From positions 1 through 64,000 of IMG/VR virus record IMGVR_UViG_3300003322_000968: 64,000 nucleotides of DNA; one strand, 5' to 3'. Within the stretch, counting starts at the first letter, position 1, and each line of letters opens with the position of its first letter. This DNA comes from a virus. The notes under the pieces were generated by a model. That model searched no databases, was not told where the DNA came from, and saw nothing but the letters and a program-made list of their open reading frames with translations. Position numbers and translations under genes: made by a program. Shown here one piece after another: positions 26,838 to 60,956 of the stretch.

Positions 26838-26948
26838 ATGAAAGAAATCTGGAAAGACATTAAAGGCTATGAAAGATTGTATCAAGCATTTAAATACGGC
26901 ATAATATGGAAGATCAACTCAGAGGCATTTATCCTCCTCATGATATAA
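26838..26948 (+). pseudogene. Remnant of a NUMOD4 homing endonuclease (internal deletion)
   Basis: Manual translation MKEIWKDIKGYERLYQ (NUMOD4 start) joined directly to AFKYGIIWK (NUMOD1-like end). Confidence 0.7.
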
Positions 26949-29203
26949 ACCCTAAGGACAAAGACATTAAATGGGGAATGAAATACGCAAGGGCCTGTTG
27001 GTCTGACTGGAGCTATACAGTACCAAGAACAATATTTTTTAACTCTAGCGATAAATACGAGGAGCTGCGATTATATGCTCAGGGCAAACAGCCTATAAAT
27101 AAATACAAGAAGCTTTTAGCGGTAGACGAACAAACTGACAATACATGGCTTACTGTGGACTGGAGCGTTCGCCCAATCATTCCTAAATTCCGCGATATAG
27201 CATTATCACGCCTCATGCAGCAGGAGTATAACATTGTTGCTACTCCCATAGACCCTCAGGCCAAAGGTGAATTAGATCAGTATTACGCTGACATGAAAGC
27301 GAAGATAGCTATACGCAAGTTAATGGAAGAACAGAATCAGGAATTAGCCAATCATCCCATGTTGCAGCCGCAGTCAGGTGAACCAATGGACTTCGAAGAA
27401 CTGGAAATGCGCATTGAGTTTGGGGAGCAATTCAATCGCAGCAAGGATGCAGAACAGGCTATTCAGCTCATGTTTTATGAGAATGATAGCAAGTTCGTTC
27501 GACGCCGTTTATTTGAATCAATGTTTGATTGCGGTACGGCTGGCTATAAAGCTTGGTTAGACAAAGACGGTAGACCGAAGTTTAGGGATGTAAATCCTGA
27601 AGCTGTCGTAACTAACTGGTGCCGTTTCCCCAATTTTAAAGACCTGATACACGCCGGCGAAGTAATTGATGTAAGCCTGATTGATCTGGCTACTATGAAG
27701 GATGATGATGGTCAGCCCTATTTTACACAGGAGGAAATTGATGAAATGCGCAATAACATCGCAGGCAAATGGAGCAACCCCGCCATGGTTGGGCGCAGCA
27801 CCAATTATTTTAAGAATTACGATCGGCAAACTGTTAAAGTATTAGACCTGCAATTCTTCTCCTACAACGAGTTGAACTTTGAGCGGAATGTAAATCGCCG
27901 GGGCAATGTAATGTTCAATGAGGCCGAATGGGACAAGCGCAATAACAAGAAAGATAAATACCTGCGCAAGAAAATTAAAGTAGTTTATGAGATTAAGTGG
28001 ATCATAGGCACTGATTATGCGTATGACTTTCGGCTTAAGAAAGACATGAAGCGCTCGGTTGACCCTAAAAAAATGGCTGAAACTACGCTCGATTACAAAT
28101 TCTTTGCGCCGAATTTTTATGAGATGCGCACCTTGTCAATGATGGAGCGCCTTGTACCATTAGCCGACGAATACCAAATGACCATATACCGCATTCAGAA
28201 CTTCATAAATCGCATGGTGCCGAACGGCTGGTGGATAGACCTTGACGCGCTGGAGAATGTTGCATTAAATAAAGGTGGCGAGAACATGAAGCCGCTTGAT
28301 CTCTTGCAGATGTTTTATGAAACCGGTGTGCTCGTTGGTCGCAGCAAAGATGTAATGGGGGATAACGTTAATTATAAGCCCATCATTCCCATTGACAATA
28401 ACGCATACAACCAGCTCCAGGCTTTATATGAGCATTTGCAATTATGTATAGCTCAGATGCAAAGCATTATCGGCCTCAATGAGCTAACCGATGCCTCTAC
28501 GCCAAATGCAAAAACACTGAACGGTGTGGCTTCCATGGCGGTTGAATCTACCAACAACGCGTTATATCAAATTCAATTTGGTGAGCGCTATTTGCTGGAG
28601 TCGCTGGCCAACGATATGTTAATGCTTACACAGCAGGCTGTTAAGAAGGGCGACATAGAAGGCTTTGCGAAGGCCCTTAACAGCAATACGCTGCAATTCA
28701 TTAAAGCTTCTGAGGACCTGCCTTTACGCGACTATGGGATTATGTTAGACGAACGCCCCACTGATGACCAGAAGCAACTTCTGCTAATGCAGATTCAGCA
28801 AGATCAGGCTCAAGGATTACTCGATACCGCCGATGCTCTTTATATATTAAATGTATATAATGTGAAGCAGGCGCAGCAAATGCTCGCCTATAAGGTTCGT
28901 AAGAATAAGGAGGCAGCACAGAAGAATGAAATGGCGAAAATACAACAAACCGTACAGGGCCAACAGCAGTCCGCCATGCTGGCCGAACAGGCGAAACAAC
29001 AAACCTTACAGGTTGAGTGGTCGCTTAAAATGCAATATATGGAACGGGAAAAGCAATTGGATTATATGATTAAGCAACAGGAGCTGCAGCTTAAGTATGG
29101 AATGAATTCCCAGAACAACCAGACAAAAATTGTTACCACGCAAATGGCCAATGAAAGCAAAGAGCGTATTGCAGAAAACGCAGAAGCCGAACCGGCCAAA
29201 TAA
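26906..29203 (+). CDS. Portal protein (crAss-like)
   Basis: 765 aa after TerL; LRLYAQGKQPINKYK, PIIPKFRDI, MFYETGVLVGRS, IGLNELTDASTP; Gln-rich C-terminal barrel. Confidence 0.88.
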   Translation: MEDQLRGIYPPHDINPKDKDIKWGMKYARACWSDWSYTVPRTIFFNSSDKYEELRLYAQGKQPINKYKKLLAVDEQTDNTWLTVDWSVRPIIPKFRDIALSRLMQQEYNIVATPIDPQAKGELDQYYADMKAKIAIRKLMEEQNQELANHPMLQPQSGEPMDFEELEMRIEFGEQFNRSKDAEQAIQLMFYENDSKFVRRRLFESMFDCGTAGYKAWLDKDGRPKFRDVNPEAVVTNWCRFPNFKDLIHAGEVIDVSLIDLATMKDDDGQPYFTQEEIDEMRNNIAGKWSNPAMVGRSTNYFKNYDRQTVKVLDLQFFSYNELNFERNVNRRGNVMFNEAEWDKRNNKKDKYLRKKIKVVYEIKWIIGTDYAYDFRLKKDMKRSVDPKKMAETTLDYKFFAPNFYEMRTLSMMERLVPLADEYQMTIYRIQNFINRMVPNGWWIDLDALENVALNKGGENMKPLDLLQMFYETGVLVGRSKDVMGDNVNYKPIIPIDNNAYNQLQALYEHLQLCIAQMQSIIGLNELTDASTPNAKTLNGVASMAVESTNNALYQIQFGERYLLESLANDMLMLTQQAVKKGDIEGFAKALNSNTLQFIKASEDLPLRDYGIMLDERPTDDQKQLLLMQIQQDQAQGLLDTADALYILNVYNVKQAQQMLAYKVRKNKEAAQKNEMAKIQQTVQGQQQSAMLAEQAKQQTLQVEWSLKMQYMEREKQLDYMIKQQELQLKYGMNSQNNQTKIVTTQMANESKERIAENAEAEPAK

Positions 29204-33113: not shown

Positions 33114-33887
33114 ATGAGGTCATATGTTGTTTATTTCCATAGAAACCCAGAAACGAAAACTATATTTTATGTAGGAATTGGAAATAACAAAAGACCCTTT
33201 CAATTTCAGGATAGAAATATCTTTTGGAAGAAATATGTTTTGAAATATGGCAATCCGGTTGTCGATGTGATCAAGATTGGTGTCTCAAAAGAGGAGGCAA
33301 TAGAAGCCGAGTTGCATTTCATATCTGTATTGGGCAGGCGCGGGATTGATAAAAATGGCATATTGGTAAATAGAACGATTGGTGGCGATGGAGTAAAAGG
33401 CGTACCGATGAGCGATATAACAAGAAAGAAACTATCCCTTATCAATAAAGGCAAAAAGCTTTCCGTTGAGCGGCGTTTAAAGATTTCAAATGGCCAAAGA
33501 GGAAGAAAGCTAACAGAAGAATGGAGAAAAAGTCTTTCAGAATCAAAAATGGGATCTAAGAACCCTTTTTATGGAAAAACCTTCTCGCGCGAGCATAGAG
33601 AAAAACTAAGCGGTAGGCGCGGACCTCTTCATCCGCGGTATGGAAAGAAAAATACAGAAGAAAGTAAGATCAAAAGGAGGGCAACAGTAGGCGATAGGTT
33701 TAAAAGAGGTGGTCACCCATATGCGCATAAAGTTATACATGAAGCCACCGGCGGAATTTGGCCCTGTGTTAAAGATGCATGGGAATTATCAGGCTTAAGA
33801 ATGACGTATATAAGCTTCGCTCGATGTCTAAGGAATGAACGCAAGAATAAAACAGGATATAAATTATTAATTAATGGCGAATCTTAA
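33114..33887 (+). CDS. GIY-YIG-like homing endonuclease with NUMOD3 repeats
   Basis: YVVYFH...IFYVGIG, LVNRTIGGDG, repeated S..TRKKLS / GSKNPFYGKT. Confidence 0.82.
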   Translation: MRSYVVYFHRNPETKTIFYVGIGNNKRPFQFQDRNIFWKKYVLKYGNPVVDVIKIGVSKEEAIEAELHFISVLGRRGIDKNGILVNRTIGGDGVKGVPMSDITRKKLSLINKGKKLSVERRLKISNGQRGRKLTEEWRKSLSESKMGSKNPFYGKTFSREHREKLSGRRGPLHPRYGKKNTEESKIKRRATVGDRFKRGGHPYAHKVIHEATGGIWPCVKDAWELSGLRMTYISFARCLRNERKNKTGYKLLINGES

Positions 33888-40610: not shown

Positions 40611-40641
40611 TTTGCTATATTCGTTTAAAATAAACCCATAT

Positions 40642-41754
40642 ATGGCAAACTACAAAATCACATTCCGAGTGCGCTGGGACAAATATAGCGCCGCGCAACA
40701 AGGCTACCCAATTTGGTTAAGGTTTAAAGTGAAGGGGTGTAAAGAAAAGTTTAAGGAAACGGAGCTTTATATACAAAGCCGCGAGCAATGGAGCGGTAAA
40801 GAGGTTAAAAAACACCCCGATGCCCAGAAGATGAACATCCTGCTGGCAAAGAAGAAAATAGAATTGAATGCCCAGCTTATGAACGACAAAATAGCAGACA
40901 TTCCAATAACAGCAAACTCCCATAAGAAGCAGCGCGGCATCCCCAGTTTTTTTGAGTATATCAAAGAGGTTCGCGGCACGAACAGAAAAACCACCAACCT
41001 TATAAATAACATAAAAGAATATTTGGGTTACGAGCCCTCTATCCATGAAATTGACATTGCCTGGCTGCGTAAGTATGAAACTCATTTACGTAAGAAGCTA
41101 AAGTATAAGGATAATTCCATAAATACCATATTCAAGGTATTGCGTCGGGTAACCAACCAAGCCGTATTGGAGAAGCACATCAAAGAGAGGGTGATTGGCA
41201 AGGGGGCCTACCAAATGCCCGCTGCTGGTAAAACCACACCTGTTTTCCTTGTAAAAGAGGAGCGCGCAAGATGGATGAAGGGGCTTGTTGAAAATGAGAT
41301 TGCAAACCCTGTAACCCGGCGAGCGCTTCTGTATTTCATGCTATCTTGCTATAGTGGTTTGCGCCATAGTGATCTGCGTAAATTCAATACAGACAAGCAT
41401 GTGATAGATGATATGATTGTATTGCGAGCCACAAAAACCGGCGAATTAATCTGTTATCCGATAGGCGAATCTTTAAAAACAATCATTGCGCTAATTCGCA
41501 TTTTAGGCCCATTGTGCATGGAATATAAGGTTTATAATGCAGCATTGAAGGATATTGCTAAGCAGTTTGAGACCAAGAAAAATGTCTCGACACACGTAGG
41601 GCGTCATTCATTTGGCCGCTTCATGGCAGAACAAAATGTATCAGAATCAGATTGCGCATATTACATGGGAATTGGCATTAAGGTGGTGCAAATTTATTAT
41701 CATATAACAGGCAAAATTAGAAATGATCGCAATCAGCATTTGCGCGTAGCGTAG
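40642..41754 (+). CDS. int: Tyrosine integrase (Bacteroidota Arm-DNA-binding + SAM-like + catalytic domains)
   Basis: YPIWLR N-terminus; GLRHSD (R), ATKTG (K), HVGRHSF (HxxR), QIYY (Y). Confidence 0.9.
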   Translation: MANYKITFRVRWDKYSAAQQGYPIWLRFKVKGCKEKFKETELYIQSREQWSGKEVKKHPDAQKMNILLAKKKIELNAQLMNDKIADIPITANSHKKQRGIPSFFEYIKEVRGTNRKTTNLINNIKEYLGYEPSIHEIDIAWLRKYETHLRKKLKYKDNSINTIFKVLRRVTNQAVLEKHIKERVIGKGAYQMPAAGKTTPVFLVKEERARWMKGLVENEIANPVTRRALLYFMLSCYSGLRHSDLRKFNTDKHVIDDMIVLRATKTGELICYPIGESLKTIIALIRILGPLCMEYKVYNAALKDIAKQFETKKNVSTHVGRHSFGRFMAEQNVSESDCAYYMGIGIKVVQIYYHITGKIRNDRNQHLRVA

Positions 41755-41755
41755 A

Positions 41756-42400
41756 CTACTCTCCAGGGCCCAGTTCTTTTGGGCCCTTTTTGCTGTTCTT
41801 TTGTTCTAAAAGCCGCTTATCGAGGCCGAACATTTTTAAGGCGAGGTAGAACTGGTCTTTTCTCACAATCTTTCCTTTAATAAACTTATCAAGTAAATTA
41901 GCTATTTGTTTTGCCTGTTCGGTAAAGGCGGTGCCCGCTTGTCCGGATTTAAGATCCTTTAAATTCATTAAGGCCCTTTCTATTGTTTTATTCATTTCGG
42001 CTATATCGCCGCCCGATTCTTCCATAAAGGAAATGAACATGGTGCGAAGCTTTGTTAGTTGCTCATCTTCGAGACTTGGCTTGGGCGCTACCAGATCTGG
42101 ATTATCGGCGCCGGGCTGTGGCAAACCCAATTCAGCGCAAATGTGATCAAAGGCCTGAGCGCCCTCTTCATCGGTTACAGGTATCCAATGCCGTAAATAC
42201 TCTGGCATTTCTTCAAATTTTACATTGTACGGACGCGCTGATGTAAATAACCTTACAGTTTCATTATCATCCAGAATCTGGTACTTTATAAACCTTAATG
42301 GCAGGCCATCTATATTGTAAGTGCTATTGATCATCAACTTTAGATGTTCCTTCCATTTCGTTATCTGAGGAACTTCCTCGGGCAGATTGTTGTTGTTCAT
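41756..42400 (-). CDS. Hypothetical protein
   Basis: 214-aa ORF convergent with the integrase. Confidence 0.6.
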   Translation of the reverse strand: MNNNNLPEEVPQITKWKEHLKLMINSTYNIDGLPLRFIKYQILDDNETVRLFTSARPYNVKFEEMPEYLRHWIPVTDEEGAQAFDHICAELGLPQPGADNPDLVAPKPSLEDEQLTKLRTMFISFMEESGGDIAEMNKTIERALMNLKDLKSGQAGTAFTEQAKQIANLLDKFIKGKIVRKDQFYLALKMFGLDKRLLEQKNSKKGPKELGPGE

Positions 42401-43364
42401 TTTCTATGGCTTTTATGGCGCGTTTTAATTCTATGCTTTTGCGCATCATGTTAATAAGTGCCTGATCTTTTCTATTATCTTCTTTTGTATTAGGGTCAAT
42501 AACGTGTCTATTTATCACTCCGACTACATACCAATCGGTGAGGTTTTTAACGCCCTCATCAAAAACAGTTACACGAGTTAGTTGCAAATTCTCAATCTCG
42601 CTAGGGCCGTCTGGATTTATTTTCTCAACCCACATTCCAGGTGGAATTTCGCCTTTGTGTTTGCGCCATAGATACGGAAGCAATAATTGATACTCTCCCT
42701 CTCCAGTCTTTATTAGCTCTCTCTTTTTTCCATCGTGCTTCCAGGCAGTAATGCCGCCTATTGGTATAGTTTCTTTGACATACTTTATTAGTTGCAGATT
42801 GTCAACTGTAAGAGGCGCGTTTTCGTCTATCCAGTCAACTCGCATGCCAAATGGAATATGACCATGGGTTTGCTCCCATAGGTATTTTGCATAGGGTCTG
42901 TACTTTGCCTGATCTAATTTTATGAGCCACTGTTTTCTTTTTTTCCAGTCTCCATATACTATTGCGCCTATTTTTGGGCTCCTTGTTTCATGTGCCTTAT
43001 AAATTGCGGCCAATTTAATTTGTTTGTAATACGGTTGGGAGCGTATGAATTTACGATCCGCCTCAGTGCGCACTAATTGGTGGTGATATATTATTATAGA
43101 AATGTCTTTTTCCCTCATAAAAGAATAGCCCATTTCATTCAGCTTAATGGCCATTTCTCTATTCGCCATTTTTCGAAAGTTGTCTTTTACATATAACAAT
43201 ACTTCTTCAGGATAAATAATCGCCCCTTTGCCTTTAATGTTATATTTTCTGCGTCTTTTTCGTATTTCAGAAACTTTGCAGTTCAGCATAGCGGCCAACT
43301 CATGATCATAAATTTTCCCGGCGTATTTATCGAAGATTTCTATTGCTTCAGGAGTCCAGTTCAT
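42324..43364 (-). CDS. Protein with HTH-like N-terminal repeats and two degenerate HNH-like repeats
   Basis: YLWEQTHGHIPFGMRV...VDNLQL and YLWRKHKGEIPPGMWV...IENLQL. Confidence 0.6.
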   Translation of the reverse strand: MNWTPEAIEIFDKYAGKIYDHELAAMLNCKVSEIRKRRRKYNIKGKGAIIYPEEVLLYVKDNFRKMANREMAIKLNEMGYSFMREKDISIIIYHHQLVRTEADRKFIRSQPYYKQIKLAAIYKAHETRSPKIGAIVYGDWKKRKQWLIKLDQAKYRPYAKYLWEQTHGHIPFGMRVDWIDENAPLTVDNLQLIKYVKETIPIGGITAWKHDGKKRELIKTGEGEYQLLLPYLWRKHKGEIPPGMWVEKINPDGPSEIENLQLTRVTVFDEGVKNLTDWYVVGVINRHVIDPNTKEDNRKDQALINMMRKSIELKRAIKAIENEQQQSARGSSSDNEMEGTSKVDDQ

Positions 43365-43680: not shown

Positions 43681-44721
43681 TTAATAACGATAAATAGGCT
43701 TAAGGATTATTTGGCTATCCATGTCAACCTTGACGGTCTCTGATTTCTCTCTTCTTATACGCATATTCCAAGCTTCGATTAAATGCTTAACCTTTGTTGT
43801 TATAGAAACGATGTTAGAGCGATTGCGATTGCGGTTTTTTAGGTGTGAAAATTCTTTCTCAAAATAGCCGCGAACAACTTTGACGGGATCATTAGCTTTG
43901 AGTTCAACGCCGCTTGCAAAGCTATCGAGGAATTGTGCGGCTTCGGCCTTCATGCCAGGCAACTGGCCCAATATATACATCATAAAGGCCCACTGTGGGG
44001 CAGTTAGAAAGTTTTTGCTATCCTTCATCCATCTGGTCTTAGCTCTTGTTAAGTGAGCTACAACTTCAACCATCTGTGATTTCTTATTAACAAAAGCATT
44101 CACCTCATAGTTAGGAACATCTTTATCTCCAATTGAGCCCTTAACCATTGACCTGTTTTGGTATAATAGAATTAGCTTAATTGTTTGGGCGATCTGGCGG
44201 CTGTCATTTGCGAAGTTGCCAATCTTAACCATGTCCTCAGCGTTGCGACGTTCATTCAGATCGATATACGAGAATGCGTCATCATCCAAGCCGGTTACGA
44301 TAATATAATCTACAGAAACGCCGCTTAAGTAAATTGCCCAAAGCTTATGCTGCCCATCGATGAGCTTAAGTTTCTTTGTAATTCGTAGTGTATCACCATT
44401 TCGCTCTTTCCACTTCTTTGATTTCATTTGCTCTACATAGGAATTAATCGCCTTCCAGCGTAATTCTCTATTTTGATCATCATCGTTGAGTGTTAGGAGA
44501 TCAAGGGCGATTTCGGGAGTAATTTTTACATAGAAGGGCTTCTCAGGGTCCGCCCGCTTAATACGTTCTATTATGTCCGTTTGTAGTTTATGCCCTTTTA
44601 ATATATCAAGGTAATCGGGTCTATTTATTTTCATTCGAAAGTTGTTTTGGCTTTTTGGGTTGGCCATTCGTTCAGAAGAGGTGGGATTGCTTCTTGTAGG
44701 GGAGATAACAACATTAGCCAT
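43681..44721 (-). CDS. ParB/Srx-like N-terminal domain protein (DGQHR type)
   Basis: ITPEIA..LL...NR, W..NGD, LIDGQHKLWAI, D....R. Confidence 0.72.
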   Translation of the reverse strand: MANVVISPTRSNPTSSERMANPKSQNNFRMKINRPDYLDILKGHKLQTDIIERIKRADPEKPFYVKITPEIALDLLTLNDDDQNRELRWKAINSYVEQMKSKKWKERNGDTLRITKKLKLIDGQHKLWAIYLSGVSVDYIIVTGLDDDAFSYIDLNERRNAEDMVKIGNFANDSRQIAQTIKLILLYQNRSMVKGSIGDKDVPNYEVNAFVNKKSQMVEVVAHLTRAKTRWMKDSKNFLTAPQWAFMMYILGQLPGMKAEAAQFLDSFASGVELKANDPVKVVRGYFEKEFSHLKNRNRNRSNIVSITTKVKHLIEAWNMRIRREKSETVKVDMDSQIILKPIYRY

Positions 44722-44895
44722 ACGCTGTCAGGGTGTTTAGTTTATTAGTTAATGATTTTAACGTCTCGAATTTAACAGAAATAATTTTATTCAAAAAAAT
44801 TAATTATTAATTTTATTAGCACTGTATTTGTATTAAGAATTGCAGTAATTGGTAGATAACATTAACTAACAATCTAAAAACCCTGACAGCGTATG
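44719..44895. repeat. 36-bp inverted repeat (33/36 identical); each arm ends in a start codon
   Basis: CATTAACTAAYAAWCTAAAMACCCTGACAGCGTATG at 44719-44754 (-) and 44860-44895 (+); third copy at 46125-46160 (+). Confidence 0.85.
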
Positions 44896-45039
44896 AAGCA
44901 CAAGACCAGGCCTAAAGCAGCTAACCCCAAACCTCCGCTCCTTTTGCGACTTATTGATCCTCAGCTAATAACACTAACGGGCAAACATGATCCGGCTATA
45001 AATAATAAAATCAAGAAAATTATTTCACGATCTTCTTAG
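44893..45039 (+). CDS. Small basic protein (48 aa)
   Basis: Manual translation MKHKTRPKAANPKPP...; preceded by the conserved 36-bp leader. Confidence 0.4.
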   Translation: MKHKTRPKAANPKPPLLLRLIDPQLITLTGKHDPAINNKIKKIISRSS

Positions 45040-45456
45040 TGACTTCTTGGTTCGCAACTCTCCAACTTCTTTCTGTAGTTTTAGCAACTGTTTGTTTATA
45101 TCAACAAGCTTATCTAAAATAAGCTGCTGACTGGCTTCTATTATTGTCAGCTGTGTTCCCATTATTAATTCAACTGAACCAGCAGCAAGCTTTGCTTGGT
45201 TCAGCAAATAGGGTTTTTCAAAATCCTCCAGATTATGTTTGTGGCGCTTTAGATAATCATTAAAGTGCAGGGCAAACTCCATGCTAATAGGGCGTTTCAT
45301 GTTCATATAGGCGCTAATAAGGCCCGGGGAAACCTTCAGCGCTTTGGCGAGTGCCGCGCTCGTTTTAATATACTTATTTACTCTTAACCAGTTAAAGGCA
45401 TTAATGAACTGATTATTCAGTTTATAGCGATCTCTATGTGGTCTACGCTCGTTCAT
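45025..45456 (-). CDS. CI-like HTH repressor
   Basis: SAALAKALKVSPGLISAYMNMKRPIS HTH with coiled-coil C-terminus; divergent from the Cro-like gene. Confidence 0.7.
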   Translation of the reverse strand: MNERRPHRDRYKLNNQFINAFNWLRVNKYIKTSAALAKALKVSPGLISAYMNMKRPISMEFALHFNDYLKRHKHNLEDFEKPYLLNQAKLAAGSVELIMGTQLTIIEASQQLILDKLVDINKQLLKLQKEVGELRTKKSLRRS

Positions 45457-46118: not shown

Positions 46119-46157
46119 CCACTCAATTAACTAACAAACTAAATACATTGACAGCGT

Positions 46158-46616
46158 ATGAATGATAACACACAATTAGCAGTAGTTGATTCTGAGCAAC
46201 ATCTTCCAGCAAGAAATGAAGGTTTGCAGCCGGTTGAACTTGAGAACATTGCGGCATTACAAAATGCTGAGCCGGCTCCGTTTGACCTTATGAGCGATTA
46301 TTGGAGCCCCGTGAATGCCGGTGAATCAAGGCGCGTACTTTTTGACCGAATTCAAACAATGGCCACGGTTGACCAGACCTCTGGAGAGATTATTGACCTG
46401 GAATGTGCTTTCTTTTTCTATCAGGAACAGCCGGGCGGCTTAACTAAACAGATTCGCAATGGCTCAAAGCGACTTGTTGGCGCCTTACAGGCCTTTAACC
46501 TCCAGCGCCTTACCCCGCTGCTTATAAAATACATGGGCAAAACCAGGAACAAAACCAACGCCAACCTATCTGATAACTGGAGCATAACCCCTTTACGCGT
46601 CGATGTCACCAAATAA
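46158..46616 (+). CDS. Putative OB-fold ssDNA-binding/recombination protein
   Basis: YWSP..GE...LIKYMGK.RNK pattern; upstream of the Gp157-like gene. Confidence 0.45.
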   Translation: MNDNTQLAVVDSEQHLPARNEGLQPVELENIAALQNAEPAPFDLMSDYWSPVNAGESRRVLFDRIQTMATVDQTSGEIIDLECAFFFYQEQPGGLTKQIRNGSKRLVGALQAFNLQRLTPLLIKYMGKTRNKTNANLSDNWSITPLRVDVTK

Positions 46617-47461: not shown

Positions 47462-47810
47462 TACAATAGAGGGAACTGGCTTTGATCAGGTGCAATCTAT
47501 TACGCTCCTAATTGACTGGGGCTTTAAATTACAACAATGGATGGCCTTCGCCGGTAGCCAACAGGCCGAATGCAAACGCGCCTTGCACGTTGCTCGAAGG
47601 CAGGCGATGGTCAACCTTGTTGCAAGCTTGCAGGCCAATGGCGCTGATATGGCAATCTCATTACAAAAACAATATGTGGATGATTTGTGCGCAGAGGAGA
47701 ATTACAACTATGAATTAGCGCAGCGCTGTAATAGGGCATGCGTACACGCCATTGATCTGGTTAGAACAGTAATCACAACACTTCGGACCGAAATTCAGAT
47801 GATCAAATGA
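47427..47810 (+). CDS. Helical hypothetical protein
   Basis: From ATG 47427; ends HAIDLVRTVIT. Confidence 0.55.
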   Translation: MIQNLQLQAILDTIEGTGFDQVQSITLLIDWGFKLQQWMAFAGSQQAECKRALHVARRQAMVNLVASLQANGADMAISLQKQYVDDLCAEENYNYELAQRCNRACVHAIDLVRTVITTLRTEIQMIK

Positions 47811-48475
47811 GTAGACTTATTGATATAACAGGTGTAAGATTCGGAAGAATACAAGTGGTGAGCATGTATACTTTCAAAGGAGGAAGAACTTATTGGTATT
47901 GGAGGTGCGATTGCGGCAGAATTAATTTAAGTGAAGCGTATAGCCTAAAATCCGGAGGTACTAAATCATGCGGCTGTTTCAGGGTCGAGCAAACATCTAA
48001 AAGGAAAATTACACACGGGCTACGCAAACATCCACTGTACGATATATGGAGTAAAATAAAAGAGCGCTGTAATAATAGCAAAAATATAGCCTATAAGAAT
48101 TATGGAGGGAGGGGAATTTCGGTTTTCAAACAATGGGAATGTTCATTTGATTCTTTCTATAAATGGTGTATTGAAAATAAATGGGAAAAGGGACTAGAAA
48201 TTGATCGGATTAATAATAACGGAAATTATGAGCCCCATAATTGCAGAATTGTAACAAGAAAAATAAACTCGCGAAATCGTCGCACAAACAAGCCGATTCA
48301 TTATATGGGGAAATTATATTGGTCTTGGGAACTAGAGGAGATTTATGGAATTCCTAAAATAATAATTCAACGACGGCTGCGCGATTATAAATGGCCAATC
48401 GAAAAAGCCTTAACAATGCCAGTATTAAAAAGAAATCGAAAACTCGTTAATTATGACACAGCTACCGTTGTTTAA
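47807..48475 (+). CDS. Homing endonuclease-like protein (CDCG/SCGC, HNH-related)
   Basis: ITGVRFGRI, WRCDCG, TKSCGC, YGGRGI, EIDRINNNGNYEPHNCR. Confidence 0.85.
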   Translation: MSRLIDITGVRFGRIQVVSMYTFKGGRTYWYWRCDCGRINLSEAYSLKSGGTKSCGCFRVEQTSKRKITHGLRKHPLYDIWSKIKERCNNSKNIAYKNYGGRGISVFKQWECSFDSFYKWCIENKWEKGLEIDRINNNGNYEPHNCRIVTRKINSRNRRTNKPIHYMGKLYWSWELEEIYGIPKIIIQRRLRDYKWPIEKALTMPVLKRNRKLVNYDTATVV

Positions 48476-48768: not shown

Positions 48769-49023
48769 ATGAATAGGCTCAATACACGTAGCGCAACCAC
48801 TGCTACACCGCACTATCTCTATGATTTGTCTATGCCATTGCCTGAACGGCAATATAAGCGCATGCTTTTCCCAAGCGCTATTGCCGCCGCTGCATTTTTA
48901 GGAGTGCCCCCACAACGCATTTATCTCAGTCGTTCTTCTCGGCATCGTATCTGGTCAGAGGCGCAAGGGCGCTGGTTCGCTGTAAGGATTGCAAATACCA
49001 AAACCATTACAACCAATGAATGA
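48769..49023 (+). CDS. Small HTH-like protein
   Basis: FPSAIAAAAFLGVPPQRI. Confidence 0.5.
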   Translation: MNRLNTRSATTATPHYLYDLSMPLPERQYKRMLFPSAIAAAAFLGVPPQRIYLSRSSRHRIWSEAQGRWFAVRIANTKTITTNE

Positions 49024-49369
49024 TCGCTATCTACTGCAACAGATGCTGCAGCGCGTAAAGGCTATCAATCCTGACTATCCGGCAGATATGCAGATTGACG
49101 GTAGGCATCTTTTAAAAGCAGCCGAATTCGTTTATAAGCAAATGTCCTTAGATCGCGGCGTTGAGAATAATGCCTATGAAATTATACCGGTTTGGGATCA
49201 GCTCTATACCGCCGCCTATAACGACCCTTTCTATAAGGATAAATCCCTGGCGACTATTTGTAACCATATACAAGAATTCTATCAAAAGGTTAAGAACGGC
49301 AATGGAAAACAAATCTCTGGTACCAAGCTCAAGCAAAAGCTTGCTGCCCGCCTTAAGAACAGGAAATAA
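49016..49369 (+). CDS. Hypothetical protein (possibly replication-related)
   Basis: From ATG 49016; DPFYKDKSLATI.N resembles phage initiator C-termini. Confidence 0.45.
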   Translation: MNDRYLLQQMLQRVKAINPDYPADMQIDGRHLLKAAEFVYKQMSLDRGVENNAYEIIPVWDQLYTAAYNDPFYKDKSLATICNHIQEFYQKVKNGNGKQISGTKLKQKLAARLKNRK

Positions 49370-49928
49370 GCAGGCCATCAATTGGCACTTACAACTATTT
49401 AAACAGCATGGCGCTATACGCCATGACCTGACACTACAAATACCAAGCGCAGAACGCATACCAGCCCTAACAAGGACCGATGCTGGATATGATGAGATCA
49501 ATACTATTCTTGCAATATACCTCACCCAAACGTTTAATAATCTCAATTTAAGAAAGGGCTTTAATGAGGATCAGGTGCTCGATTTAGCAGAAATGATTAT
49601 TGAAGAAGCGAAGGAGGATAACTTAAGCCTGGAGGACGTAATGCTGTTTCTTCAGCAATTAGTAACAGGTAAGGCTGGTAAGATATTTGACCGGCTGGAT
49701 ATACCAACCTTTTTTGAGCTATTTGAGGGCTATAGGCAGGATCGACACCTAGCATTACAATATATACACTATGAGGCCGAAGTGCAGTTTAAAGGGATGG
49801 GCGACACGACACGGACCAGCGATGGCAATATGGAGAACGATGAAAATACAAGACGGGTTATGGCCGATTACTATAAAAACTCTATGAATAATGAAAGTCA
49901 ACCCATTCAGCCGCCGCCTGCGCCCTGA
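49302..49928 (+). CDS. Hypothetical protein (possible helicase-loader type)
   Basis: From ATG 49302; LSLEDVMLF.....GK.GKIFDRLD. Confidence 0.5.
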   Translation: MENKSLVPSSSKSLLPALRTGNKQAINWHLQLFKQHGAIRHDLTLQIPSAERIPALTRTDAGYDEINTILAIYLTQTFNNLNLRKGFNEDQVLDLAEMIIEEAKEDNLSLEDVMLFLQQLVTGKAGKIFDRLDIPTFFELFEGYRQDRHLALQYIHYEAEVQFKGMGDTTRTSDGNMENDENTRRVMADYYKNSMNNESQPIQPPPAP

Positions 49929-50253
49929 GGATAAGTTACACGCAAGCGTTTGCGACTATATACTTTGGACCTATCCCGGAGCCGTTATACACCACTCGCC
50001 TAATGAAGGAAAACGTACGGCATTTGAGCGGTATTTAATGAAGGTCCTGCGCGTCTCCAGTGGCTTTCCTGACCTGCTAATATTTTACCGTGGCCAAACG
50101 ATCGCCATTGAATTAAAGGCCGGTAAAAACTGTATGACGGTCAATCAACAACGATGGATTGCGTTGCTCAAGGAATACTTCCCTGCGTCCTGTTGTACGG
50201 GCTTTGATGAGGCAACTGCTTTTATTGATGAGTATTTTAAAAACCTTAAATAA
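49891..50253 (+). CDS. VRR-NUC domain nuclease
   Basis: EDKLH, HSPNEG, GFPDL, IELKAGKN..T.NQ..W. Confidence 0.85.
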   Translation: MKVNPFSRRLRPEDKLHASVCDYILWTYPGAVIHHSPNEGKRTAFERYLMKVLRVSSGFPDLLIFYRGQTIAIELKAGKNCMTVNQQRWIALLKEYFPASCCTGFDEATAFIDEYFKNLK

Positions 50254-50329
50254 ACAAAAAACCACGCCTTATGGGGCGTGGCAATTGCCAGTATCTATAT
50301 GTAACAAAAAAGGAGGTACACCTAATCTA
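50253..50329 (-). ncRNA. Candidate small RNA driven by a late-type promoter
   Basis: Minus-strand TAGATTAGGTGTA (50317-50329), then ~30 nt later CCACGCC-CCATAA-GGCGTGG + TTTTTG. Confidence 0.5.
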
Positions 50330-50342
50330 CTCATTAAATTTC

Positions 50343-50732
50343 ATGTATCCAACAAAAATTCCCTTGCGAGAAATTGAACGCTCAATATCAATTAATTGTG
50401 CAATTGACAAATCCTCCCCAAAAACGCTGCAGCTCATGAAGTGGCAAGGCCAGAACCAGTATCTAAGACAAGGTTTAGGCCGGTGCCTATTTGTGTACAT
50501 TGCCTTAAAATCAGGCTACAATCAAGAGGAGATTTGCGACTATTTGACTATGAGCGAACAGGAGTACTTGCAGCAATCCGGGATCCTGGATGAATACTAC
50601 AATAACGGGCGCTTATTGTTTGAATCAGTTGGCACAAAAGCCGGCTATTTAGAAACTAAAGACGCCTGCTTATTCTTTTACCGCAAGCTAGTATTAGCGG
50701 AGAACTATTTGCGGTATAGGTTTGGGTTATAA
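50343..50732 (+). CDS. Protein with a DnaA domain IV-like HTH; candidate late activator
   Basis: GRCLFVYIALKSGYNQEEICDYL resembles the DnaA C-terminal HTH; last gene of the early operon. Confidence 0.45.
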   Translation: MYPTKIPLREIERSISINCAIDKSSPKTLQLMKWQGQNQYLRQGLGRCLFVYIALKSGYNQEEICDYLTMSEQEYLQQSGILDEYYNNGRLLFESVGTKAGYLETKDACLFFYRKLVLAENYLRYRFGL

Positions 50733-50735
50733 ACT

Positions 50736-50764
50736 AAAAAGCCCCAGTGTTGAAACACCAGGGC
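50736..50764 (-). terminator. Intrinsic terminator at the convergence of two operons
   Basis: GCCCTGGTGT-TTCA-ACACTGGGGC + TTTTT on the minus strand. Confidence 0.7.
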
Positions 50765-50844
50765 CCGAGCTAATAGCTACTTGCTATTTGGAAGAAAAGC
50801 CCAAGCGGGCAAAAAACACTATATATGAAAAGACAAAATCATTA

Positions 50845-51501
50845 TTAAAAGTATCCCTTAATATAATCCCAAATTCGCTCTTTTATAGCTAACATTCCTT
50901 TATCGGATGGGTGAGAGCATATACCGGGATCAGCATAAAGCCCCTTCGCAGTATTTGTTTCATCTTTTTGTAAATCAGAATTTAAAATGAAAGCATATTT
51001 TTCCCGGTAAGCCCACTTTCTTATTTCCATATTAAGTGCTTTATTCCAAAATCCATCTACAATTACAACAACAGCATTTGAGGTGTTAAGGTAATTTATC
51101 AACCTTTCGTAATATTCAATGAAATCAATAGCTCCTTCTGGTACATTCTCAGATATTCGGAAAATATACAAATCAGCTCCTTTTAATAAATCCAATTGCT
51201 GAAGATCATAGGTTTTAAATTCTCTTTCAAATGCTGCTATGTTTTTAAACTCAATTGATGTACCGGGGGATTTGTCTTTGATGCTTTTAATCAGTAGATG
51301 AACAAAATCTGAATCTAAAGCGGAAGCTGCCATTCCCCAATCATGTTCCCATCCAATAGAAGGTAGCGGAGCATGTTGTACAATACTGTTACCTAAGATT
51401 ACTACCTTTTGAATTTTCCCAACCTTAGCATTGATTATAGGATTGGGTTGATTACAGGCAAAAAGATATAATGTAAAGATTAGTAAGCTAATGCGGCGCA
51501 T
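50845..51501 (-). CDS. SGNH/GDSL hydrolase lipoprotein (moron)
   Basis: Lipobox LFAC, ILGNSI block I, EN block III, HPSDKG block V. Confidence 0.82.
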   Translation of the reverse strand: MRRISLLIFTLYLFACNQPNPIINAKVGKIQKVVILGNSIVQHAPLPSIGWEHDWGMAASALDSDFVHLLIKSIKDKSPGTSIEFKNIAAFEREFKTYDLQQLDLLKGADLYIFRISENVPEGAIDFIEYYERLINYLNTSNAVVVIVDGFWNKALNMEIRKWAYREKYAFILNSDLQKDETNTAKGLYADPGICSHPSDKGMLAIKERIWDYIKGYF

Positions 51502-51559
51502 AGATTAAATTTAAAAATGGCCAGGATATTTAGTAGTATCCTGGCCGCGATGCACATAT

Positions 51560-51567
51560 CAAATATA
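51560..51567 (-). promoter_or_regulatory. Bacteroidota sigmaA-type -7 element upstream of the SGNH gene
   Basis: TATATTTG matches TAnnTTTG. Confidence 0.45.
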
Positions 51568-51620
51568 AATTACCGCGACGAATGTAAAGAAAAGTCCAAA
51601 AATGTCAATATAATTTGCGA

Positions 51621-51848
51621 CTATTTTGCCTTACGGTTATAATTACGCATTTCAAATCTGATAACGCCGCTTCGGTCACGCCACGCATAAAGCGTATCGG
51701 GGCGTAGGCTGTCGAATGAAACAACTTCCAACTCTTCTGGTAAGTCAATTTGCGAGAGCTTGTGTGCGGTAAAGGTAAGGCCGGAGATAATAAATAAAAC
51801 CAGGACACTGAGCGCTATAGTGAGCGCGGTTACGTTTCGTTTATACAT
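51621..51848 (-). CDS. Array gene: membrane-anchored small protein
   Basis: MYKRNVTALTIALSVLVLFII... Confidence 0.6.
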   Translation of the reverse strand: MYKRNVTALTIALSVLVLFIISGLTFTAHKLSQIDLPEELEVVSFDSLRPDTLYAWRDRSGVIRFEMRNYNRKAK

Positions 51849-51883
51849 TTGGTTTAGTTTGTTTATATAAAACAAAAGCCCGG

Positions 51884-52429
51884 CTATTTGCCGGGCTTAG
51901 TAACAACCTGATCTATTGCAGTTTTTATCTGTTCTTTTGTAAGATACCATGAGCTTACTTTAATACAATTCTTACCATTAAATGTTATCACTGACACTTC
52001 GCAGGTATCCCCTATGAGCGCGGTAAGCGCCTGCGCCAATCTGTTAATTTCGCTCAAGTCTTTTGAGCTGCTTGACCTGATTACCTCTGATCGTTTATCA
52101 AGCCTTGGCGGTCTTTTTTTCATAACCAATCGCTCCGGTCCGGGGCTATGAGCCTCAAGATAGGCCGCTAATTTTGCGACTATTTCAGGGTCATTTGAAG
52201 GATATTCCCGCAAAGAAGAGGCCGTAATGATGTGTGTGGCCCCTTTTATTTGCGTATTCAGGAACCAAAATTCATGATCAAGGCTGCCGGCATTTGCTAC
52301 TATTTGGTTATTATGCAGGGCGCAGGTTGTAATAGCCTCATTCCTGCAATTGGCTGCCCAATCGGCCATTTCTGTAACCAAGGGCTGTCTGTAACGGCAA
52401 AGGGTTATTTTCGAAGGCTTTTTTGACAT
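51884..52429 (-). CDS. Array gene: hypothetical protein
   Basis: Start MSKKPSK at 52429; stop codon lies in the next hairpin. Confidence 0.6.
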   Translation of the reverse strand: MSKKPSKITLCRYRQPLVTEMADWAANCRNEAITTCALHNNQIVANAGSLDHEFWFLNTQIKGATHIITASSLREYPSNDPEIVAKLAAYLEAHSPGPERLVMKKRPPRLDKRSEVIRSSSSKDLSEINRLAQALTALIGDTCEVSVITFNGKNCIKVSSWYLTKEQIKTAIDQVVTKPGK

Positions 52430-52571
52430 AACAGTGTTTTTGTTTTTAACTATATCATACCATAAATAGCAAAGCCCGCAAAAGCGGGCAGTAAACGTAA
52501 ATTTCAATTCATAGGCGAATTCTTTTTATGTTTTGCGACTATTTTAGTCAGCAATGATCAGTAATACGATC

Positions 52572-52841
52572 CTACGCTTTGCGATCCTGGTGAAACCGGC
52601 AGCGCTCACCAGGTTTTGCGACTATTTGTTGGCACTTGCCACCCTTGGCCTTATCGGCCCCGCAGCGCAGCGTGTTGGGATCGTGAAACCGGCAATAGCC
52701 AGACGGTAATACAAACGGCGACATACATTGTACAGAATCTTTCAGTTTCTTGTCGTAGCGCTTGCCCTTACATTGGGGGTTCTGGGCTATTACGGTAAGT
52801 GTTACCAGTAATAGCCCCAAAATAACGGTTAGAGTTTTCAT
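52572..52841 (-). CDS. Array gene: exported protein with two C-x-C-C-H zinc-knuckle-like repeats
   Basis: Signal peptide; QCKG...QC...YCRFH and RCGA..KGGKC...RCRFH. Confidence 0.6.
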   Translation of the reverse strand: MKTLTVILGLLLVTLTVIAQNPQCKGKRYDKKLKDSVQCMSPFVLPSGYCRFHDPNTLRCGADKAKGGKCQQIVAKPGERCRFHQDRKA

Positions 52842-52903
52842 GTTAATTGTTTATAATAAAAAACCCCGCATTTGCGGGGTTGGTAGGGATTAATAAACGG
52901 GGC

Positions 52904-53146
52904 CTATTTGTTGTTTTCTTTGAATGCTTTATATTCCGCCTTGCACCATTGCTTATAGTCGGTTTTTGTGACGCCTGCCTCTTTGTCTCTTTGTTCTTCA
53001 TACCCGTTTCTGTTTTCCCAATAGCTTTTAGCGGTTGCCTCGGTCATGAATTTTGCAGCCTTGGGGGTTTTATAATCTTCTGGGTAAAGCCTCATATTCT
53101 CTCTGAACAATTCCTTTATTATTTGCTCAATGTTATGTTTTTGCAT
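52904..53146 (-). CDS. Array gene: hypothetical protein
   Basis: Preceded by the array unit. Confidence 0.65.
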   Translation of the reverse strand: MQKHNIEQIIKELFRENMRLYPEDYKTPKAAKFMTEATAKSYWENRNGYEEQRDKEAGVTKTDYKQWCKAEYKAFKENNK

Positions 53147-53172
53147 ATTGAGTGTTTTAAATACAAAAGCCC

Positions 53173-53473
53173 CTATTCGGGGCTATGCATTGTGGTTAAA
53201 ACTTCATTCATTTCTTCACCAGGAATAAACAGCACTTCCGCGCTGTCGTCATTGTCGTTTTGCTGCGTAATTTTTAGGCTATTGTCACGATAAACGATAT
53301 AAATGCGTCCCTCGTAATTAATGCTTGAAATAGCGCATTTAATAGGCTCTGAAGGCAGTTCGTCAATTGAGGTCTGCTTAATAATGCGGGCCCAATTTTA
53401 AAAGTTCTTCATGATCCCATTCGCCATGCAGGCGCGCTTGAATTGCTCGTAATGCTTGAACTGTGTTATACAT
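53173..53473 (-). pseudogene. Array gene interrupted by a frameshift
   Basis: MYNTVQ...LKLGPHY* continues in the +1 frame as ...RIIKQTSIDELP...MHSPE*; 301 nt from ATG to the stop in the next hairpin. Confidence 0.6.
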
Positions 53474-53567
53474 ATAAGTGTTTTTAAATACAAAAACCCC
53501 GCCCAGCAACCTGGAACGGGGTAAACACTCTGTCCAACGAAAAAGAGGGTTTAACGTTTTCCCGATG

Positions 53568-53921
53568 TCAGGAAAACGCTTCAATAAATTCTTTATCCCA
53601 GTCGCCGTTTTCGTCAAATACGGTGTATTCGCAATTATCATATGCGCAATATAACGGATAGCCTGAGCGTGAATTTAAATTCGTTGCAAAGATTACCGGT
53701 TTGCCGTTAACGGTTATATTATAATTTGCAACATAAATATCCCCGCTGCTATCGTCTTTTTCGATCCTGAACGGCTCACCATTTTCTACTATTTGTATTG
53801 TAATACCCTCGGGCCGGTCATGCTGATCGCTTTTGATTAAAAGGTGCCCCATGCAGCGTAATAATTTTGCTTCATTGAAAAAATCGCGGGGTATAACGCG
53901 TAAATAGCTACTATTTGTCAT
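53568..53921 (-). CDS. Array gene: conserved phage hypothetical protein
   Basis: YLRVIPRDFFNEAKLL.C.G...LNSRSGYPLY. Confidence 0.7.
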   Translation of the reverse strand: MTNSSYLRVIPRDFFNEAKLLRCMGHLLIKSDQHDRPEGITIQIVENGEPFRIEKDDSSGDIYVANYNITVNGKPVIFATNLNSRSGYPLYCAYDNCEYTVFDENGDWDKEFIEAFS

Positions 53922-53992
53922 ATAAGTGTTTTAACTAAAAAGCCCCGCGCAATTGCTTGCAACGGGGCCGCTTTCCATCTAAAACCAAATAG

Positions 53993-54430
53993 TTAAACGC
54001 GCATAAACTCCTTCAGATCGTATTGAGTGCTACCATGTGTGAAATAGGCTCCGCCCTCCTCGTGCTCAATCTCCGCCTCATAAATTTCTTCATGCTCCAT
54101 ATCCTGCCCGTAATTAAACCGGTAATACACCCCGTCATTGCTATGATTAAACATAATTTCAATGCCGCCATGATTGCAAATTGTAAGTGTTGCATCTGGC
54201 TTGAATCTATCGGGGCTTATATCTGCAACCTTCCCCACTATTAATTCAAATTCGCGCCACCAATCGCCAATGGTATGTTTTTCGCCCATATCATTAATGG
54301 TTTGGCAGTCCATTAACGCCGCCTCGGTGTCAATACGGCGACCGGTTTCAACTGTGTAGATTTTGCCTTTAGTAAAGCAGCCGCCGCCATTGTGCAGGTT
54401 ACTTTTTGCTTTAATTTGATAAGTATTCAT
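53993..54430 (-). CDS. Array gene: hypothetical protein, probably two domains
   Basis: 145 aa; preceded by the array unit. Confidence 0.65.
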   Translation of the reverse strand: MNTYQIKAKSNLHNGGGCFTKGKIYTVETGRRIDTEAALMDCQTINDMGEKHTIGDWWREFELIVGKVADISPDRFKPDATLTICNHGGIEIMFNHSNDGVYYRFNYGQDMEHEEIYEAEIEHEEGGAYFTHGSTQYDLKEFMRV

Positions 54431-54488
54431 GTTATGAGTGTTTATTAATAGAAAAGCCCCAATGAGGGGCTAAATTTGCTACTATTTG

Positions 54489-54713
54489 TTACAGATCATC
54501 GGGGCCAAATGTATGCCAGCTAATGTAGCTATAGAGCCTATTTAATACAATCATAGCGCGCAAAGATTCCGCCGTAAATGATTTTAGTGTATTGTCAGCG
54601 CCGTGAAGCGTATTATATAACAATTTGGCTTCTGTGCCATGGGGATCAATTTTTCCCTCTTTAATGCGCTTAACAAACTGCTTGACCTGATTGTTTAATT
54701 CTGCTTTTGTCAT
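54489..54713 (-). CDS. Array gene: hypothetical protein
   Basis: Preceded by the array unit. Confidence 0.65.
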   Translation of the reverse strand: MTKAELNNQVKQFVKRIKEGKIDPHGTEAKLLYNTLHGADNTLKSFTAESLRAMIVLNRLYSYISWHTFGPDDL

Positions 54714-56613: not shown

Positions 56614-56943
56614 TTAACGGGCTTTCTTGTTAGCGAATTCACGGGCTTTTAACCAGTATTTTGCAGCGTTGGGAGCATTGTCTGGGTGGTAATGTATGTT
56701 TTCCTCCCGCTCTGTATTGGTGCCATAGTCTTTTATATAAAATCCTGTACTATACCACGAACTAATGCTTGCGCTGTCAGGGCTCTGAGAGGCATGTATG
56801 TGTGTTTTCATTAATGCAACCAACTCCCTAAATGTTACTTGCTGCTTTTCTTCAATAAAGCCAGTATCTGAATAATCCCCTATTGCAGCGCTTTCGGGTG
56901 TAGTTTCAGCGTATGTGCGCGAAATGATTATGTAGTTGTTCAT
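56614..56943 (-). CDS. Array gene: hypothetical protein
   Basis: Start MNNYIII at 56943; TPESAAIGD..DTGF. Confidence 0.65.
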   Translation of the reverse strand: MNNYIIISRTYAETTPESAAIGDYSDTGFIEEKQQVTFRELVALMKTHIHASQSPDSASISSWYSTGFYIKDYGTNTEREENIHYHPDNAPNAAKYWLKAREFANKKAR

Positions 56944-60897: not shown

Positions 60898-60956
60898 TAT
60901 AGGCTGTATGAACAGTTATAGAATGGGTATTGTACATACACCTAATGTAAGGAATT

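Follow-up and report, generated by a model that had tools for sequence, protein, structure and literature searches.

What might a 13-bp word do that recurs in a single orientation over several kilobases of a phage genome, inside genes of both strands as well as between them? The question is raised by the sequence TTTGCGACTATTT and its variant TTTGCTACTATTT in IMG/VR virus record IMGVR_UViG_3300003322_000968, a single virus contig of 77,572 bp (77.6 kb) whose first 64 kb (positions 1 to 64,000) formed the window that was analyzed. The phage, here called G, comes from root metagenomes, has a GC content of 41% and is temperate, with an integrase gene at 40612-41754. An initial annotation of the window had proposed that the 13-mers are a DNA-level protein-binding signal, such as dispersed origin iterons, a parS-like centromere for the ParB-like protein encoded at 43681-44721, or a polar replication signal. 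We show that selection at the DNA level acts on the sites, that they share one orientation and that in four genomes they are linked to one small gene, 50343-50732 or its homologue. The general part of the proposal, a DNA-level protein-binding signal, is supported by shuffled-sequence controls, by the conserved places of the sites and by their one orientation in four genomes, whereas its iteron and parS versions did not hold up; a polar replication signal is possible.

Distribution of the 13-mers in phage G

All the copies given in the initial annotation were found. Exact copies of TTTGCGACTATTT (n = 5) occur on the plus strand at 50533, 51614, 52173, 52532 and 52615, and two copies of TTTGCTACTATTT lie on the same strand at 52293 and 54475. 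Together they are confined to 50533-54487, with the array beginning inside gene 50343-50732. Neither sequence has a further copy on either strand of the 77,572-bp genome, which extends to the whole genome the earlier remark that no exact copy had been noticed elsewhere, and no exact or one-mismatch copy was present outside 49949-54487 in the same search. Two partial copies had also been noted, of which that at 49949 was confirmed and that given as 49249 corresponds to CTGGCGACTATTT at 49247. A position matrix scored both of these, and 53782 and 53904, as weaker copies; other weak copies lie at 54398 and 55490. The array comprises seven strong and about four weak copies of an asymmetric, non-palindromic word, at a spacing of 83-1167 bp. 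The information in the matrix was confined to 13-14 positions, the flanks being uninformative. The strong copies and four of the weak ones are as follows.

50533-50545, plus strand: exact 13-mer in gene 50343-50732, in the invariant EEICDYL codons, first helix of the helix-turn-helix (HTH)
51614-51626, plus strand: exact 13-mer across the TAG stop codon of minus-strand gene 51621-51875
52173-52185, plus strand: exact 13-mer in minus-strand gene 51884-52429 (EIVAKL)
52293-52305, plus strand: TTTGCTACTATTT in minus-strand gene 51884-52429 (QIVANA)
52532-52544, plus strand: exact 13-mer, intergenic, between the stop codon of 52572-52841 and a minus-strand hairpin at 52489-52474
52615-52627, plus strand: exact 13-mer in minus-strand gene 52572-52841 (QQIVAKPG)
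53782-53794, plus strand: weaker copy TTTTCTACTATTT in minus-strand gene 53568-53921, 17 bits
53904-53917, plus strand: weaker copy ATAGCTACTATTTG, 2 bases past the start codon of 53568-53921
54475-54487, plus strand: TTTGCTACTATTT, intergenic, 1 base past the stop codon of 54489-54713 and before a minus-strand hairpin at 54471-54455
49949-49961, plus strand: one-mismatch copy TTTGCGACTATAT in the VRR-NUC gene (VCDYI); doubtful, not conserved in the relative REL (see below)
49247-49259, plus strand: two-mismatch copy CTGGCGACTATTT in gene 48989-49369; doubtful, the homologous place in REL scoring no site

Three copies are intergenic or lie across a stop codon. The others are within open reading frames (ORFs), where they encode the peptides originally read from them (ICDY at 50533 and 49949, IVAK/IVAN at 52173, 52615 and 52293), and their differing reading frames indicate that they are not a protein repeat. 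Dinucleotide shuffles gave an expectation of 0.01 copies of TTTGCGACTATTT, and five copies were reached in none of 100. The initial annotation had named enrichment over a codon-preserving shuffle as something that a genuine signal should show, and such a shuffle was run on 12 genes (4,642 nt). The coding copies, three exact and five with at most one mismatch, compare with shuffle means of 0.15 and 0.90, and the observed counts were reached in 0 of 1000 shuffles. The enrichment thus resides in the choice of synonymous codons as well as in the intergenic copies.

Two further occurrences of parts of the motif were seen. The C-terminal NYLRY codons of gene 50343-50732 (50697-50711, AAC TAT TTG CGG TAT) join the 3' half of the motif (ACTATTTG) to its 5' half (TTTGCG), and a like overlap exists at 1665-1684 of the relative L002; this junction is probably a coincidence. 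The 13-mer is absent from the spacers of the dCas12f CRISPR array of G. One spacer of that array, TTCAAATAGTCAGCC... (69526-69556, minus strand, beyond the window), contains 9 nt of the reverse complement of the motif core, a marginal match (about p 0.03), and could derive from the site of a sibling phage.

Conservation of the array in related phages

No DNA similar to G was present in 50,697 GenBank phage records, and scans of IMG/VR with single proteins and with profiles returned no relatives. Metagenome and genome scans gave L001, L002 and L003 alone, so the comparison rests on four genomes, G included. L002 is a metagenome contig of 2.1 kb and L001 is 16.9 kb long; both carry a homologue of gene 50343-50732. 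L003 is part of a 79-kb contig, and its reverse complement, REL, is collinear with G, the shared genes having 65-73% nucleotide identity. The four DNA sequencing runs that contain this DNA are assembled contigs from one study, and among the runs listed none of RNA contains it.

A matrix built from the G sites alone found six sites in L002 on the strand of the gene and none on the opposite strand. Above 12 bits, REL gave 12 sites on the strand of the gene versus three on the other, and 11 of the 12 lie between the homologous gene and 14 kb downstream. In the four genomes a relaxed core, G[CT][GT]ACT[AT]TT, recurs at about one copy per kb between the gene and +8 kb, 29 times on the gene's strand and once on the opposite strand. 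In the remainder of the two whole genomes its density falls to 0.02-0.03 per kb per strand, and that in the array is 40-50 times higher. In the bin containing REL (relative G001), the other sequences had no excess of the motif (133 forward and 132 reverse occurrences, control 144 and 165), which shows that it is not a genome-wide word of that bin.

The form of the motif varies with the phage. L001 has the variant GCC-G[CT]TACTTTTT on one strand, downstream of the gene. Its dispersed motif carries T in place of the A of the others, and the copy inside the gene, TGTGACTTTTTG (TGT GAC TTT TTG, giving ICDFL), has changed in step. The in-gene site at 50533 is identical in every base in REL and differs by one base in L002. 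Conservation at synonymous positions in relatives had been put forward as a further mark of a DNA-level signal, and the codons ATT TGC GAC TAT are the same in G, REL and L002 while the other synonymous positions of the gene are scrambled. The peptide EEICDYL is invariant in the close family and variable in the wider family, which fits an added constraint at the DNA level.

Sites also hold their place within homologous cassette genes at 34-42% amino acid identity. The homologue of 51621-51875 in L002 (41% amino acid identity) likewise has a site on its TAG stop codon, and in both G and L002 the site is conserved into the non-coding bases past the stop. The homologue of 52572-52841 in REL (34% amino acid identity) has ATA GTC GCA AA in the corresponding place (REL 12071), in a cassette that is 7.6 kb from the gene in REL versus 1.8 kb in G. 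There is turnover as well: REL has no counterpart to either site of 51884-52429 or to the weak copies at 49247 and 49949.

All genes downstream of the 50343-50732 homologue are on the minus strand in G, REL and L001, the array lies wholly within this minus-strand cassette operon in the same three phages, and in the four genomes its copies all point the same way with respect to the minus-strand genes. The copy inside 50343-50732, a plus-strand gene, has the opposite relation to its own gene.

A candidate binding protein

The gene to which the array is linked is the following.

50343-50732, plus strand: gene for a 129-amino-acid stand-alone HTH protein, the candidate binder; last gene of the early operon, with a predicted fold like that of DnaA domain IV

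Its product was one of those suggested for binding tests in the initial annotation and is now the best candidate for the reader of the sites; we think it somewhat more probable that it binds the 13-mers than that it does not. Forty homologues of 122-146 amino acids begin at the position of the 50343 ATG. The family (about 40) is wholly metagenomic, with some members on 75-78-kb contigs, and all but one of its 38-40 members are stand-alone proteins of 92-146 amino acids, the exception being a marginal match of 470 amino acids.

An AlphaFold (AF2) model from 23 sequences was all-helical, with a predicted local distance difference test score (pLDDT) of 83. In an exhaustive VIA search the top match was 3pvp_A (Z 9.5, root-mean-square deviation 2.6 Å, 92 of 96 residues aligned), followed by 1j1v_A (Z 8.8), 8btg_A (Z 8.5) and 1l8q_A (Z 7.6). 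All four are DNA-binding domains (domain IV) of DnaA; the next match had Z 4.9, and repressor structures were not among the top matches. The product is thus predicted to fold like the DnaA DNA-binding domain. Domain IV of DnaA contacts its asymmetric box as a monomer, through its HTH and an arginine in the minor groove, and an asymmetric word of 13 bp fits this mode of binding. That a binding site should lie within the gene of its own binder is a recurring arrangement, as in the lambda origin in gene O and parS in spo0J.

Several observations weigh against this assignment. The fold match has no counterpart in sequence: Pfam and PHROGs returned nothing for 50343-50732, PF08299 does not match phage G, a profile search of PDB sequences gave one spurious designed protein and nothing else, and hhalign against the DnaA C-terminus was not significant (E 0.38), even if that alignment pairs the nearly invariant GxGR...F.YIA...GY..EIC.YL with the expected stretch of DnaA. 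Foldseek searches with the model against PDB and BFVD gave no significant match, its weak BFVD neighbours including small phage proteins annotated 'DnaA C-terminal' (E 0.5-2.6), and in the ESM Atlas there were generic HTH leads alone, below 0.9. Chance alone can give a helical model a middling Z score. The predicted recognition helix begins with SEQEYLQQ in G and with TLDEYRHK in REL, although the 13-mers of the two are the same; this makes the assignment weaker. The reader could be another of the conserved early proteins, since the early module as a whole is conserved together with the array.

Comparison with known site arrays

The closest parallels come from cluster A mycobacteriophages, in which L5-type repressors bind more than 20 asymmetric 13-mers as monomers and block elongation in one orientation only (PMC9283540). 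The array in G resembles these stoperators (L5 gp71 and TipsytheTRex repressors; PMC9283540, PMC6550527) in having many asymmetric 13-bp words read by a monomer (the reader here being predicted) and in a consensus that drifts with phage lineage. The orientation of stoperators is tied to the direction of transcription; that of the array may be so too, judging from the strands of the downstream genes, the copy inside 50343-50732 being an exception. The array differs in several respects. Stoperators lie in promoters and short intergenic gaps throughout the genome, whereas the sites of G are mostly within ORFs and within about 5 kb of 77.6 kb, and in G and its relatives they are confined to 4-14 kb beside one gene. 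The stoperator binder is the immunity repressor, with an HTH and a stoperator domain; the candidate in G resembles the DnaA DNA-binding domain, has no similarity to gp71 and is separate from the CI-like protein encoded at 45025-45456. The host lineage is also different, as G has 41% GC and Bacteroidota-style cassette leaders, and the elongation block demonstrated for stoperators is a proposal from sequence in G. The array is a real, conserved and one-way one that resembles stoperators in its logic, differing in protein, placement and host.

With regard to DnaA (PDB 1j1v, 3pvp), the predicted fold spans the whole of domain IV and a nearly invariant arginine precedes the helix that leads into the HTH. 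DnaA boxes, too, are asymmetric sites of monomer size, and box clusters away from the origin are known (datA). The protein of G differs in its lack of sequence homology, in lacking the AAA+ domain III and the helicase-loading domain I, and in being phage-encoded; the 13-mer is unrelated to the DnaA box TTATCCACA, and the phage has no DnaA-box cluster. Polar barriers such as Tus-Ter and MTERF1, the latter a polar roadblock (PMC13646843; roadblocks are reviewed in PMC10310618), share an asymmetric site and a one-sided block by a monomer, which for G is a proposal. Ter sites likewise form co-oriented groups, although in two opposed orientations where G has one only, and the folds of Tus and MTERF1 are unrelated to that of the candidate. 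Lastly, phage proteins annotated 'Chromosomal replication initiator, DnaA C-terminal', such as I6RTB7 of Nonlabens phage P12024L, are similarly stand-alone, 90-200 amino acids long and from tailed phages, some of them phages of Bacteroidota; their Foldseek matches to the model were not significant (E 0.5-2.6). A search of the literature on such proteins found nothing relevant on their function or target sites.

A possible polar block to transcription

The early operon of G runs on the plus strand from about 45.6 to 50.7 kb, with Mu Gam-like, HNH and VRR-NUC genes and 50343-50732 as its last gene. Convergent with it is a long block of small accessory-gene cassettes on the minus strand, each small gene of which is followed by an intrinsic terminator hairpin on the minus strand. 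The array is densest beside this convergent junction, and its best site lies in the coding sequence of the candidate binder gene itself. Two strong minus-strand terminators bracket that plus-strand gene in both G and L003:

50261-50282, minus strand: intrinsic terminator on the far side of the candidate binder gene, with equivalents in L003
50739-50766, minus strand: intrinsic terminator closing the cassette operon, just past the stop codon of the candidate binder gene, with equivalents in L003

That monomer sites keep strictly to one orientation over kilobases speaks for a directional process, and the location in the minus-strand operon, the density at the junction and the bracketing terminators favor a block to RNA polymerase. 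We therefore propose the following model, with due caution. The 13-mers would be double-stranded DNA sites for a monomeric, asymmetric binder, most likely the 129-amino-acid product of 50343-50732, whose gene, the last of the early operon, faces the 3' end of the minus-strand cassette operon. The bound protein would act as a direction-dependent, stoperator-like block to elongating RNA polymerase, which would switch off the distal part of the cassette operon or insulate it, and would prevent cassette transcription from entering the converging early operon. We give this explanation as a whole, that of monomer-type sites for a DnaA-like protein acting as polar transcription blocks, a little less than an even chance of being correct. 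Its last element, that the effect of the sites is a polar block to transcription, is tentative and rather less likely than not. Here, too, some findings do not sit easily with the proposal. Most sites are inside ORFs, unlike stoperators in their short intergenic gaps; they are at the 3' end of the operon, when a device for shutting it off would be expected near the promoter; and in REL they spread over 14 kb, beyond the junction.

A broader and more speculative form of this proposal, which we regard as unlikely though worth stating, is that members of this family of temperate phages build a programmable polar barrier from a protein consisting of DnaA domain IV alone and a one-way array of 13-bp sites that evolves along with it. 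Such a barrier might be a phage-made terminator or insulator, placed where operons converge, for a terminator-resistant RNA polymerase, or a Tus-like fork trap on a new fold, and the site variants would define lineage-specific specificities, as in stoperators. Few arrays of protein sites depend on orientation, the main examples being stoperators and Ter sites, and those that do are informative about mechanism. If the proposal is true, this would be a second, unrelated phage example, with a binder on the fold of a replication initiator's DNA-binding domain, and would provide the first testable function for the small 'DnaA C-terminal' phage proteins. It would also offer a compact pair (129 amino acids, 13 bp) with natural specificity variants for one-way blocks to transcription or replication, and it is relevant to the ways in which phages terminate or silence long accessory-gene operons studded with terminators.

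Alternative explanations

A role in replication, with the sites as polar fork-arrest (Ter-like) sites that make replication one-directional or set a terminus, or as dispersed initiator boxes of the phage origin, seems to us rather improbable. The sites are asymmetric and strictly co-oriented like Tus-Ter clusters, the predicted fold of the candidate binder is that of an origin-binding domain, one site is inside the binder's own gene (compare the lambda origin in gene O), and the ORFs scanned held no recognisable replication gene, so that an unrecognised initiator is needed. However, the spacing of 83-1167 bp is not that of a tandem iteron cluster, an AT-rich stretch suited to unwinding is missing from 49-55 kb (the window richest in A and T lies at 44781) and host DnaA boxes do not cluster in the phage, which together speak against the origin iterons of the initial annotation. 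The 129-amino-acid protein also lacks AAA+ and helicase-loading domains, and the sites move with individual cassette genes rather than being fixed in place. The array might instead be a titration or operator set that buffers or times the free amount of a regulator whose job is elsewhere, for example in late promoter activation, much as datA buffers DnaA. The gene is the last early gene, a position where late activators sit, the late upstream box CTTATCC[TA]ACTTTT shares CTACT.TTT with the 13-mer, and the late boxes at 9091, 24752 and 29201 resemble the DnaA box and the TTTGCTACTATTT variant. The late box has diverged between CTTATCCTACTTTT in G and GTCAATCCGCTTTTT in REL, which has no ACT core, whereas the 13-mer is identical in both, and this weakens the idea; pure titration, moreover, needs no strict co-orientation. 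We consider it improbable.

The remaining alternatives involve other readers. Single-block promoters or sigma-dependent pause sites for plus-strand antisense transcription across the cassettes would account for the single orientation, as co-directional antisense RNAs, and the 3' part of the motif, ACTATTTG, loosely resembles the Bacteroidota -7 box (TAnnTTTG). Yet there is no second element, nothing being conserved at a fixed distance upstream or downstream, no plus-strand ORFs follow the sites, most of which are in minus-strand ORFs, and one copy is midway in a plus-strand gene; such a role is very unlikely. A signal at the RNA level, in which AAAUAGUCGCAAA in the minus-strand polycistronic RNA is a site for a protein or RNase or pairs with the 50343-50732 mRNA, is brought to mind by the array copies all being in one direction of transcription, by some being at start or stop codons and by the exact complementarity of the in-gene copy in G and REL. 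We hold it to be highly improbable, given that the three dispersed copies of L002 are identical to one another but two positions off its in-gene copy, which indicates a common reader and not pairing, that there is no flanking structure or conservation, and that 13 exact bases are long for a linear RNA-protein site. The parS-like centromere of the initial annotation, or terminase pac sites, can be given hardly any credence. The ParB-like gene is conserved along with the array in REL and L001, and the plasmid prophage N15 provides a precedent for dispersed centromere sites. Against this, the word is non-palindromic, no copy is in or beside the ParB-like gene (43681-44721), from which the nearest strong copy is 5.8 kb away, the assignment of that gene to ParB has weak support (E 3e-4 in PHROG, and no ParB domain from Pfam), and the phage has an integrase and no ParA among the proteins scanned. 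As for pac, terL and the portal gene (26906-29203 in G) are 22-25 kb from the array, and known pac sites are hundreds of bases long, not kilobases. A sigma-54 or -33/-7 type of promoter was considered separately and rejected by eye, the flanks being unconserved.

Other features of the locus and genome

The position of the two terminators around 50343-50732 is as if minus-strand transcription normally ran antisense across the gene. In L001 there is instead a plus-strand terminator upstream of the gene (9709-9737), which suggests that the gene is its own transcription unit there. A structure-atlas search with the nearby gene 49371-49928 returned DUF6633 alone.

The late promoters of G have an upstream box and a downstream element, CTTATCC[TA]ACTTTT ... 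TAGATTAGGTGTA, at 9091, 24752 and 29201, both of them diverged from the GTCAATCCGCTTTTT ... TAGTTTAGG at 40.7, 55.9 and 60.3 kb in REL; the genes flanking them are about 70% identical between G and the 79-kb REL. A late-type element, (TAG/TAC)ATTAGGTGTA, occurs on the minus strand too, at 50314-50326, 60934-60946 and 76160-76172. The copy at 50326 is directly upstream of the start of 50343-50732 and about 30 nt before the terminator at 50282-50261, and that at 76172 carries the full upstream box TAAAAACTTATCC.

The cassettes themselves are variable. In sibling phages, represented by contigs from the same root-metagenome study, cassettes are swapped or missing, and one variant has 83 other bases in place of 50831-51578. 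The contigs break at 46132-46161, 50705-50734, 51846-51875 and 56694-56723, points that coincide with hairpin junctions and not with 13-mers.

At the other end of the early operon, the CI-like HTH gene 45025-45456 adjoins a divergent control region (the lysis-lysogeny switch). A leader of 35-36 nt ending in ATG (ATTAACTAACAA.CTAAA.AC..TGACAGCGTATG) is found at 44719-44754 (minus strand), 44860-44895 (plus strand) and 46126-46160 (plus strand), and is common to the ParB-like gene, a 48-amino-acid ORF and gene 46158-46616. This leader may serve all three as an operator of translation or transcription in the switch region. The integrase/lysogeny region of REL has a CRISPR-repeat-like sequence (REL 73643-73811 versus genome 69735-69903), at another genomic position than the CRISPR array of G. 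Finally, two homing-endonuclease-like genes (phrog_314) are located within the structural-gene block of G (10512-11357 and 33114-33887), and HNH genes are at 3304-3897, 42324-43364 and 47807-48475.

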